Positions 14,901 through 17,900 of a stretch of 26,870 bases of DNA are shown in pieces. The position numbers are program-made. Source of the stretch: a virus (lineage: Duplodnaviria > Heunggongvirae > Uroviricota > Caudoviricetes); IMG/VR virus record IMGVR_UViG_2869947659_000007, positions 1 through 26,870 of that record. One strand, given 5' to 3'. Each line of letters starts with the position of its first letter. Positions within the stretch are counted from its first letter, which is position 1.

Positions 14901-17900
14901 CTTGAGCGAGATATATTAAAAAAAGCAACAGCGTATTTTGCACAGGAGTCGCTGAAAAATACGCGTTAATCGAACAATGGCGACAACAATTTCCCATTGA
15001 AGCGATGTGTCAGGTATTTGGTGTATCCAGGAGCGGTTATTACAACTGGGTACAGCATGAACCCTCAGACAGAAAACAAAGTGATGAGCGGCTAAAACTG
15101 GAGATTAAGGTGGCACATATCCGCACTCGCGAAACATATGGAACCCGGCGGCTCCAGACGGAGCTGGCAGAGAATGGCATCATCGTTGGTCGTGACCGAC
15201 TGGCACGTCTTCGTAAGGAGCTAAGGCTACGCTGTAAGCAGAAACGCAAGTTCAGAGCGACTACGAACCCGAACCACAATCTGCCAGTTGCGCCAAATCT
15301 GCTGAACCAGACGTTCGCTCCTACAGCACCAAATCAGGTCTGGGTGGCGGACCTGACGTATGTTGCCACACAGGAGGGATGGTTGTACCTCGCTGGCATC
15401 AAAGATGTTTATACGTGCGAAATTGTCGGCTACGCCATGGGAGAGCGCATGACAAAAGAGCTGACAGGTAAAGCCCTGTTTATGGCGCTCAGGAGCCAGC
15501 GCCCACCTGCCGGGCTAATCCACCACTCTGATCGAGGTTCACAGTACTGCGCATACGATTACCGGGTCATACAGGAGCAGTCTGGTCTGAAAACATCAAT
15601 GTCGCGTAAAGGTCACTGTTACGACAACGCTCCGATGGAAAGCTTCTGGGGAACGCTGAAAAATGAGAGCCTGAGCCACTATCGTTTTAATAACCGGGAT
15701 GAAGCCATCTCAGTAATACGGGAATACATTGAGATTTTTTACAATCGTCAGCGTCGTCACTCTCGTCTGGGGAATATCTCCCCGGCAGCCTTCAGGGAAA
15801 AATATCATCAGATGGCTGCTTAAAAAAAGAACAAATGGTAGTGTCCGCTATTGCCAGTACACCTCACTGAGCCGGAGATTCCGGATCAACGGCAATGCTG
15901 ACCACCGTCTCTTCCTGTGGTGGATTCTGTTGCTGGTGGGCGTGAGGCAGCAGCGCAAGATTTTTTGTGCGCTGCTTCAGTATGCTGGTGGCGGTCTGCT
16001 CTCCCGGCACGATGTCGCTTTCACGGTACATTGAGCGGATTTTTTCCGCACGCAACCCCAGCGAACGACGTAATACTGCTTCCGGTAGCGCGTCCGCCAC
16101 CTGATTGCGGACCGCCCACCAGGATAATTCAGCCAGAGATAATTCACGCTCCTGCGTACCGCTTATTGCGTGACCGATGACGTCAATCATCCATGCTGAC
16201 AGGTTTTGATGAGCAAGTTGCTCGAGTGATTCGGATGTCTGGTCACGCAACTGGTTGTCGCAGTGCCAGCACAACACCATTGCGCCGGTACCATAACGGT
16301 GAATGACGGTTTCGCTGTGATGATAATCGCCGTGTGGCCACTGGCAGGATTTAATATGGCGCAACAGCCAGTCAGACAATGCACCAGCACCACCAGCAGC
16401 ACGAATCACCCGTGCGTTACTGAAAAACGGCAGCAATGTTTTGTCTTCCACTAGCGGCTGGCGAACGGCAGGAACGACCCCGGACGGCAGATTACGCATG
16501 CTTTTCGGTTCCGGCTCCACCAGTACCCGGGTATTGTGGAATACCGGCATGGATTCACGGCCTGGCTTAAGGACCACCAGCCCGAGTTCCGGAACCAGAA
16601 CAGGTCGAAGTAATACCCGCACATTACCTCCAGATCCGTTGCTGGAATGTGCAGGACGGACGCGGTGGCCGTTCGGAATAAGGGAGCCTGACGAAGATTA
16701 TCCAGTGACGATAATCGAGACTGAGGGCTTTCTTAATCTCGTATCCGTGTCTGCGGTAGCGCTGAATCAGCCATTCAGCCTGTTCTTCGGTGCAGGGGTC
16801 GTGCTGATACCAGTCAGATTTGAATGCATGAGAACGCCGCCCGTGCCTGCTGGCAGGGGCGGCAGAGTTATCCGAATTGTAAAATTTGGTATCGTGCGCC
16901 ATCTGTTTTCTCTGCTGGCGCAGCAGGTGCCAGTTGTTCAGGCTGACGGATGGATTGTAAACCAGAACGACCAGAAAAAACAAAACCCGCCGAAGCGGGT
17001 TAAGTGCGGGTGCGTTGAGGATGCCTGACACATCAGCGGTGGCGAGGGATTTCTCCCCCGCCGGGTCTCTTACTCCTCAGGTTCGTAAGCTGTGAAGACA
17101 GCGACCTCCGTCTGGCCGGTTCGGATTCGTACCTCGCAGAGGTCTTTCCTCGTTACCAGTGCCGTCACTATGACGGTTAAACAGATGACGATAAGGGCGA
17201 TTAACATCGCCTTTTGCTGCTTCATAGCCTGCTTCTCCTTGCCTTTCGGCACGTAAGAGGCTAACCTACATGTGTTCAGCATGGATTGAGCCTCAGATTA
17301 ATGTTAAGCGTCTTGCAGGACGCGTAATGTTAACTGGGGCTTTTCTCTATCTGCCTTTTGGTGTTCATGCCTGAGACAGATAGCCTCAAGCACCCGCAGT
17401 CATTCTACTTAACTAAGATTTCCCTGCAAACCGTTTTTGTCCGGCACAGTAAATATCCAACTAAACCAATAGCGTTCGCTGTATTTACCGCCAGTATTCA
17501 ATGCACATGACCGCCATGAACACCCCTAAAAAAAGGGCATTTATATGTCCAAACATTAATATCAAAACATCAATTTTTTCCATATACCTTGCTGTGAAGA
17601 TGATGGGCATACATGATGCGAACAACCAGAACGCAACAAACAAAAACTGCAATGCGTTTTTCATTATTCCCCCTACAATCAATGTGCAATAACATTTAAA
17701 CACACCTCAATTTGGCCGGACATATAAATATCTAAACCAGAAAAAATCACTTACATAGCGTTACAAACTCTTTAGTCTAAATACTCATCGTAAAACATTC
17801 CCCATACTTATCAGTCCGTTCCGCGCCAGGTAGCTTATTGCCTTATCTGGCAACCTATAATCAGGTTTCCGCTTTTTCAGTTGGCTGGTCGTTTAACCGA

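Follow-up and report, generated by a model that had tools for sequence, protein, structure and literature searches.

A small gene translationally coupled to a truncated YdfU/DUF968 gene at an IS600 junction in a prophage record

The DNA analysed here (the window) covers positions 1 to 26,870 (26,870 nucleotides, nt) of the virus record IMGVR_UViG_2869947659_000007 (Caudoviricetes), and this work concerns two adjacent open reading frames (ORFs) on its minus strand, located between the hokD toxin gene and the end of an insertion sequence (IS), IS600 (Table 1). The first ORF encodes a small protein of 92 amino acids (aa). The second, which opens with GTG at 16622-16620 and closes with TGA at 15866-15864, encodes a 252-aa protein with a dense cluster of Cys and His residues. 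The second gene is a truncated YdfU/DUF968 nuclease gene and not a transcription antiterminator, and the pair is translated as a coupled unit. The two ORFs are very probably what remains, at the 5′ end, of a two-gene module that belonged to the nin-like early-right region of a lambdoid prophage in Shigella, the nuclease remnant being non-catalytic.

The Cys/His-rich protein belongs to the YdfU/DUF968 family

An initial reading of the window made from the sequence alone (the sequence-only reading) had left a Q-type antiterminator and a DUF968-like protein as alternatives for the second ORF. A hidden Markov model search settled the matter in favour of the latter: Pfam DUF968 (PF06147) matched aa 160-251 at profile positions 1-76 of 171 with 60.9 bits (cut-off 27.8; 2e-16), and no Q family, such as Phage_antiter_Q (PF06323) or Phage_antitermQ (PF06530), matched even at E ≤ 1. 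The same assignment came from PHROG 96, ‘HNH endonuclease’ (1e-107, profile positions 1-236 of 334), from E. coli K-12 YdfU, which is 88% identical over 250 aa (E 7e-165), and from RefSeq, where the intact orthologue is labelled ‘DUF968 domain-containing protein’. The NCBIfam and PADLOC searches gave nothing for either protein of the pair, and thus no curated equivalog and no link to a known defence system.

Full-length relatives score 215 bits on DUF968 (profile positions 1-169, aa 160-344), with HNHc_6/HNH matches at aa 267-328. Their three parts are an N-terminal domain covering aa 1-158, a helical region in the middle (aa 160-254) and, at the C-terminus, a zinc-finger HNH module of the His-Me finger type (approximately aa 265-345). 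The fragment in the window differs from the first 252 residues of WP_001265248.1 by one residue only (L224 here, P there). Past residue 252, the latter protein continues with CMTCGNQADDPHHI...LCRKCHNELH and ...YLQRQ...CMTCGNQADDPHHIIGHGLGGMGTKADDLFVIPLCRKCHNELH..., a canonical zinc-finger HNH motif (CxxC ... HH ... CxxCH ... H), which occupies residues 276-317 of the intact orthologue. A structural model of the full-length protein matched the HNH domains of Ref, YbcO, IscB, Cap5 and McrA, and sequence and profile searches of the PDB with the full-length protein returned weak HNH matches only. DUF968 proteins have been described as carrying a C-terminal zinc-finger HNH (PMC4118853), and DUF968 and DUF1364 together constitute group 7 of the His-Me fingers, whose genes typically neighbour those for RusA and Q (PMC5714182).

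The gene order in other prophages agrees with this description. In every intact relative examined, the DUF968 gene lies upstream of RusA and/or Q, whereas in the window these neighbours are deleted and IS600 is found in their place. Two E. coli prophages have the intact order hokD, 92-aa gene, DUF968, RusA, Q. One of them lies in NZ_CP065613.1, the E. coli sequence most closely related to the window (99.8% DNA identity); DUF968 is 352 aa long there, and Q is followed by four tRNAs and then by the lysis genes. The Qin prophage of K-12 has hokD, rem, an unannotated 92-aa ORF, ydfU and the Q homologue ydfT, with no rusA, and more distant DUF968 genes also stand directly upstream of Q. The full-length homologues thus show what follows the gene, namely rusA and then Q, or Q directly.

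The IS600 junction and the missing part of the gene

The IS600 copy is 99.5% identical to copies annotated as ‘IS3-like element IS600 family transposase’, has ORFs of 100 and 272 aa, and is bounded by TG...CA ends with the terminal repeats TGAGGT.../...ACCTCA. No 3-bp target-site duplication was found at the element, the adjoining bases being CAC (left) and CTG (right). On the left, homology to NZ_CP065613.1 extends over 12600-14602 and breaks off at position 630094 of that genome, within the baseplate J coding sequence (CDS; 629919-631001); on the right, it resumes at 653221, so that approximately 23.1 kb are missing relative to that strain, its two ISEc60 copies included. Since IS600 lacks a target duplication and its flanks lie 23.1 kb apart in the relative, the junction is, as judged from these alignments, the product of a deletion or recombination and not of a simple insertion. 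The missing stretch comprises the last 100 DUF968 codons, rusA, Q and the four tRNAs, together with the holin, lysozyme, spanin, terminase, portal, capsid and most tail genes. The sequence-only reading had the C-terminus of the protein cut off by IS600; the loss itself, at residue 252, was confirmed, but a simple cut by the element does not account for it, as the catalytic HNH went with the 23-kb deletion.

Homology to the intact DUF968 gene stops at the IS600 end, and the stretch from 16622 to 15867 measures 756 nt, i.e. exactly 252 native codons with no IS-encoded tail. What the fragment retains is the N-terminal domain with the putative zinc cluster (aa 1-158) and, from the Pfam DUF968 region, the helical first half (aa 160-252); ending as it does at residue 252, the window copy lacks the C-terminal zinc-finger HNH. 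Only one non-synonymous and two synonymous changes separate the fragment from the intact orthologue, and the truncation should therefore be recent. The exact 252-aa product is deposited as ABB65625.1 from Shigella boydii Sb227, occurs also in S. flexneri, and was found on 49 contigs. With a known family and an exact sequence already in the databases, this is an ordinary, catalogued prophage gene pair. The annotation is settled as a truncated YdfU/DUF968 gene, not Q, and the loss of the late-gene activator, lysis and virion genes in one IS600-associated deletion is typical of IS-driven prophage decay in Shigella.

In a separate observation, many database ‘fusions’, among them those (P0268, P0299, P0302, P0247, P0079 and P0015) were found to join an N-terminal part of DUF968 to other phage segments, including tail-tip, tail-fibre, portal, tail-sheath and DNA-methylase sequences, with varying breakpoints. 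They look like independent prophage deletions with one end in the gene, as in the window, or, in the methylase case, like module swaps. A deletion breakpoint common to the window and the chimera P0079 was considered and rejected, the breakpoint of the latter being at about residue 245 as against 252; no hotspot is shared.

Table 1 Features of the locus in the window.
Feature	Position	Strand	Evidence	Remark
hokD toxin gene	17070..17225	-	ORF translation, RefSeq annotation of homologues	Upstream neighbour of the small gene
sok match	17220-17395		Rfam RF01794, 118.9 bits	
Spurious 5′ extension of the ‘135-aa’ ORF	16903..17031	-	Terminator scan, K-12 comparison	hokD 3′ untranslated region
Small-protein gene	16624..16902	-		92 aa and TAA stop
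Coupling junction	16620..16632	-		TGG AGG TAA T GTG
YdfU-type DUF968 gene, 5′ fragment	15867..16622	-		Codons 1-252 of 352
Cys/His cluster C93...N123	16254..16346	-		Within the DUF968 fragment
TGA stop of the cut ORF	15864..15866	-		From the terminal bases of the IS600 right inverted repeat
IS600	14603..15866	+		1264 bp; orfA 14667..14969, orfB 15005..15823
Baseplate J/gp47 gene, 3′ fragment	14427..14602	-		Other edge of the deletion

The N-terminal Cys/His cluster

The cluster reads C93-Q-W-P-H-G-D-Y-H101-H102 ... L-C118-W-H-C121-D-N123. A search of 1.84 billion representative proteins yielded 2261 relatives, the full-length ones reaching down to 27% identity, and conservation was evaluated on alignments of 28-41 homologues that included the window fragment and extended to approximately 22% identity. 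In these alignments C93 and C118 are the sole invariant residues of the whole protein, and Q94, W119 and D122 are kept in 90% or more of the sequences. All 28 printed rows have Cys or His at position 121, and 27 of them also at position 101, where the remaining one has Asn; roughly every second sequence retains H102, and H108 shows no conservation. As a consensus, the family reads CQ-x6-Y[CH]H-x15-LCWH[HC]DN. In the AlphaFold2 (AF2) model of P0040, a full-length relative that is 92% identical (mean predicted local distance difference test score of 89.4), residues 105-110 and 113-118 form a β-hairpin followed by a helix at 119-125, with C118 closing the second strand and C121 placed in the first helical turn. 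A hairpin and a helix with Cys residues in such positions are typical of treble-clef or HNH-type structural zinc sites. The conservation and the model make a structural zinc site, formed by C93, [C/H]101, C118 and [C/H]121, the most likely identity of the cluster. The earlier impression of a metal site is thus plausible and fits a conserved feature, although the cluster is not the catalytic HNH motif of the family. It would bind a structural zinc ion that holds the hairpin-plus-helix element together, and would be neither a catalytic site nor a Q-type zinc finger.

It is conceivable, albeit doubtful, that an internal duplication of the C-terminal HNH (His-Me finger) module gave rise to the cluster, which would then be a second, degenerate copy. 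The predicted hairpin followed by a helix, with a Cys ending the second strand and a Cys or His in the first helical turn, agrees with this idea, as do a weak internal BLASTP match and an hhalign comparison in which the N-terminal and C-terminal domains align in the same order of elements (W..C / HH / LCxxC-H). However, the E value of that comparison was 0.09, and that of the N-terminal domain against YbcO was 0.15, neither being significant, and the alignment contains no conserved candidate for the catalytic His of a His-Me finger in the N-terminal cluster. No Pfam model covers residues 1-159 in the window fragment or in the full-length relatives, and a profile of the N-terminal domain gave chance matches only against the PDB. 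The YdfU family is very common, and its first 158 residues therefore stand as a conserved Cys/His domain with no Pfam model and no relative in the PDB.

A 92-aa gene upstream of DUF968

The small ORF had first been taken as 135 aa long, from GTG at 17031 to TAA at 16626-16624. The gene turned out to be real, but its length did not hold: RefSeq homologues are 92 aa long and begin at an ATG that corresponds to window position 16902, i.e. to M44 of the longer version. The 43 surplus codons span the hokD 3′ untranslated region and an intrinsic-terminator hairpin (17001-16984) with a T-run extending to approximately 16974; the terminator scan rated this terminator-like hairpin as strong, with TTTTGTTTTTT directly after it. 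Homology to the 3′ sequence of K-12 hokD reaches as far as the terminator and stops thereafter. Because the homologues start at 16902 and the surplus runs through the hokD terminator, the 135-aa version is an over-called ORF.

The ratio of non-synonymous to synonymous substitution rates (dN/dS) of the small gene is 0.18-0.25, with dS of up to 0.6 against the K-12 copy, and that of the DUF968 gene is 0.14-0.16. Given these low values and the hundreds of homologues that both genes have, both ORFs are real coding genes. The length of the small protein is steady at 90-92 aa over 154 protein clusters, nearly all named Escherichia or Shigella. A scan of genome contigs with the small protein, based on a pattern search that reaches close relatives only, gave nine loci, one of them labelled as a Veillonella parvula metagenome bin and the others as Escherichia or Shigella.

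Residues 27-92 of the protein make up a conserved core of 66 aa, preceded by an N-terminal tail that is variable and was modelled with low confidence. Its C-terminal 66 residues match PHROG 1212, a family of 66 aa and unknown function, over profile positions 1-66 of 66 (E 2.4e-33), whereas no Pfam, NCBIfam or PADLOC family was matched. The core was modelled by AF2 with moderate confidence as strand-helix-strand-strand; a structural search with the model found no informative neighbour, and a profile of the protein gave chance matches only against the PDB.

In K-12, the small protein was compared with Rem of the Qin prophage (b1561), and this identity was rejected, as BLASTP gave no alignment at E ≤ 100. 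The true counterpart is the unannotated ORF between rem and ydfU, an intact 92-aa frame at NC_000913.3 complement 1644309..1644584 (L004:4310-4585, minus strand) in MG1655, with dN/dS of 0.21 against the window copy. The feature table shown for NC_000913.3 has no CDS at these positions. A by-product of this work is, consequently, an intact, conserved and unannotated 92-aa ORF directly upstream of ydfU in K-12 Qin.

The two genes are coupled through a shared junction

The TAA stop of the small gene (16624-16626) and the GTG start of the DUF968 gene (16620-16622) are separated by 1 nt, and the last two codons of the small gene, W91-R92 (TGG AGG, 16627-16632), supply the GGAGG Shine-Dalgarno sequence 4 nt before the GTG. 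Since the final codons of the first gene are the ribosome-binding site of the second, whose start lies 1 nt past the stop, the pair is translated as a coupled unit. Coupling had been proposed from the 1-nt spacing of the ORFs, and the proposal was borne out by the conservation of the junction: the sequence TGGAGGTAAnGTG is kept in K-12 and in all seven intact loci among the nine related ones, and both genes are decayed in the other two.

The arrangement extends to a distant relative, a metagenomic prophage (L005), in which the DUF968 gene is 49% identical and is directly preceded by a gene for a homologue of the small protein with 67 aa, 45% identity and an E value of 1e-20. There the junction is TGGAGGGACTGATG, with the stop and the start overlapping (TGATG; L005:3985-4003). 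The Trp-Arg codons (TGG AGG) still double as the Shine-Dalgarno sequence in this 45%-identical homologue. With two terminal codons that also serve the nuclease gene as its ribosome-binding site, the small gene offers a neat case of hard-wired coupling.

Comparison with known systems

Among the closest known systems is YdfU of the cryptic K-12 prophage Qin, an orthologue that shares with the window gene its N-terminal Cys/His cluster, its GTG start and its GGAGGTAAnGTG junction with a 92-aa ORF upstream; hokD lies further upstream and Q downstream. Unlike the window copy, which stops at residue 252, YdfU is full length (349 aa) and has the HNH module, and Qin, in contrast to the window, has rem between hokD and the small ORF. 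YbcO of DLP12 (DUF1364, PDB ID: 3g27) is a single domain of 96 aa that matches only the part deleted in the window, and the N-terminal domain of the window protein has no similarity to it. With Ref of phage P1 (PDB ID: 3plw), a RecA-dependent HNH endonuclease, the likeness is confined to a single domain of approximately 80 residues, likely the canonical C-terminal HNH; Ref has a disordered basic N-terminus in place of the zinc-cluster and helical domains, and the HNH is what the window copy lacks.

Gp16 of the Staphylococcus phage PhiNM1 has recently been reported to be a RecA-dependent nickase (PMC12817073), and phiETA Orf20-type DUF968 proteins from Gram-positive hosts form a comparison group with Gp16 (PMC4118853). 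Gp16 (L018:4052-4723) scores 389 bits on Pfam HNHc_6 and also narrowly passes DUF968 (29.1 vs 27.8 bits), and full-length YdfU-type proteins in turn pass HNHc_6 (33 vs 26.6 bits). As seen from these profile matches, the Pfam families HNHc_6 and DUF968 overlap on the HNH module. The HNH modules of Gp16 and the YdfU family are related by hhalign as well (E 9e-7), and the likeness is limited to HNH: the NinB/Orf-like N-terminal domain of Gp16 has no counterpart in the YdfU family. As early genes of their phages, gp16 and the YdfU-type genes both lie close to recombination genes, rusA among them. ‘DUF968’ thereby has an experimentally studied relative in Gp16. The HNH module that is homologous to those of RecA-dependent phage nucleases is missing from the window copy.

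Interpretation of the gene pair

Taken together, the results point to a module of two genes that, in intact phages, would be made from the delayed-early rightward transcript, the intact nuclease probably working with RusA on recombination or replication intermediates, and the small protein possibly acting as its partner or regulator. The window copy would be a pseudogene remnant that cannot cut DNA, and the prophage would no longer switch on its late genes, lyse the cell or make particles. Several points weigh against parts of this interpretation. The nuclease activity, its substrate and the link to RecA or RusA are ascribed to the enterobacterial YdfU clade by analogy, and zinc binding by the N-terminal cluster is putative, derived from conservation and a predicted structure. 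The truncated ORF is open, and its identical presence on 49 contigs from several Shigella means that it may have a residual function. Finally, the small protein accompanies only the closer DUF968 relatives (at least 49% identity), and the more distant DUF968 genes (about 40% identity) are coupled to an MT-A70 methylase or an antirepressor gene instead. The partnership with the small protein is therefore clade-specific, which weakens the idea of an obligatory partner.

A further hypothesis, speculative and on balance unlikely, gives the small protein the role of a dedicated partner, such as an inhibitor, a chaperone or a specificity factor, of YdfU-type nucleases with two zinc modules. If so, the pair would constitute a DNA-processing unit of two components, so far uncharacterised, in lambdoid prophages of Escherichia; one of these components is absent from the K-12 MG1655 annotation, and the two zinc modules would be a degenerate, non-catalytic N-terminal one and a catalytic C-terminal HNH. 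This hypothesis concerns the intact relatives; the pair in the window would be inactive, with its catalytic half deleted.

The 252-aa fragment might also be alive, i.e. the N-terminal zinc domain and half of DUF968 might be retained in Shigella as a stand-alone DNA-binding or dominant-negative protein. We consider this improbable. The ORF does end cleanly at the IS600 TGA, the identical protein occurs in both S. boydii and S. flexneri, PHROG 11007 (2.7e-69) is a 134-aa phage family that corresponds to the N-terminal domain alone, and proteins consisting of only this domain are found among the database representatives. However, many of these N-terminal-only entries carry the label partial or represent deletion chimeras, the Pfam DUF968 domain is itself interrupted by the cut (profile position 76 of 171), and the early operon of a prophage is normally repressed. 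Moreover, the three nucleotide changes from the intact orthologue (one non-synonymous, two synonymous) speak for a recent cut, and the spread of the fragment within Shigella is explained by descent. A non-catalytic remnant therefore remains our preferred explanation of the second ORF.

Whether the small ORF is no gene at all, being a chance frame in the hok 3′ region or a leader of DUF968, was also considered, and the answer is almost certainly negative. Such an explanation would suit the lack of Pfam and NCBIfam families, the missing annotation in K-12 MG1655 and the terminator that the 135-aa version does cross, but it is at odds with the dN/dS and dS values and the constant length given above, with the PHROG 1212 match and the folded core of the AF2 model, with the 45%-identical homologue that occupies the same position beside the 49%-identical DUF968 gene, and with the decayed loci, where both genes are disrupted together. 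As for a Q-type late-gene antiterminator whose zinc finger would be the Cys/His cluster, the zinc-binding motif of lambdoid Q proteins and the position of the gene where Q is expected carry practically no weight against a DUF968 match above the cut-off with no Q family at E ≤ 1, structural neighbours that are HNH nucleases, and a Q annotated as a separate gene, past DUF968 and RusA in intact relatives and directly past DUF968 in distant ones.

Surroundings of the locus in the window

To the left of IS600, approximately 58 final codons of baseplate J are followed by YmfQ-family and tail-fibre-assembly genes (12643-14427, minus strand). Only this far end of the tail module of the same prophage survives there (14427-14602 and 12643-14427). 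Further away, a 2007-aa ORF (4918-10941, minus strand) encodes an inverse autotransporter of the invasin/intimin-like type with an IAT_beta domain, 12 Big_1 and 10 Invasin_D3 repeats. An IS3-type element (3832-5036) overlaps the 3′ end of this ORF, which may therefore be truncated. In addition to IS600, the window contains at least four IS copies or fragments (1 to approximately 700, 3832-5036, 22246-22943 and 26568-26870), namely IS1 twice, one IS3-family element, and a 100-aa IS3-type orfA-like ORF at the right edge. This density of IS elements fits a Shigella-type genome in IS-driven decay. On the plus strand, an 858-aa RecE-like protein with an Exonuc_VIII and an Rv2179c-like exonuclease domain is encoded at 22824-25400, with IS1 overlapping its 5′ end, and a phage-integrase fragment lies at 25940-26506; together, these two suggest where the prophage ends.

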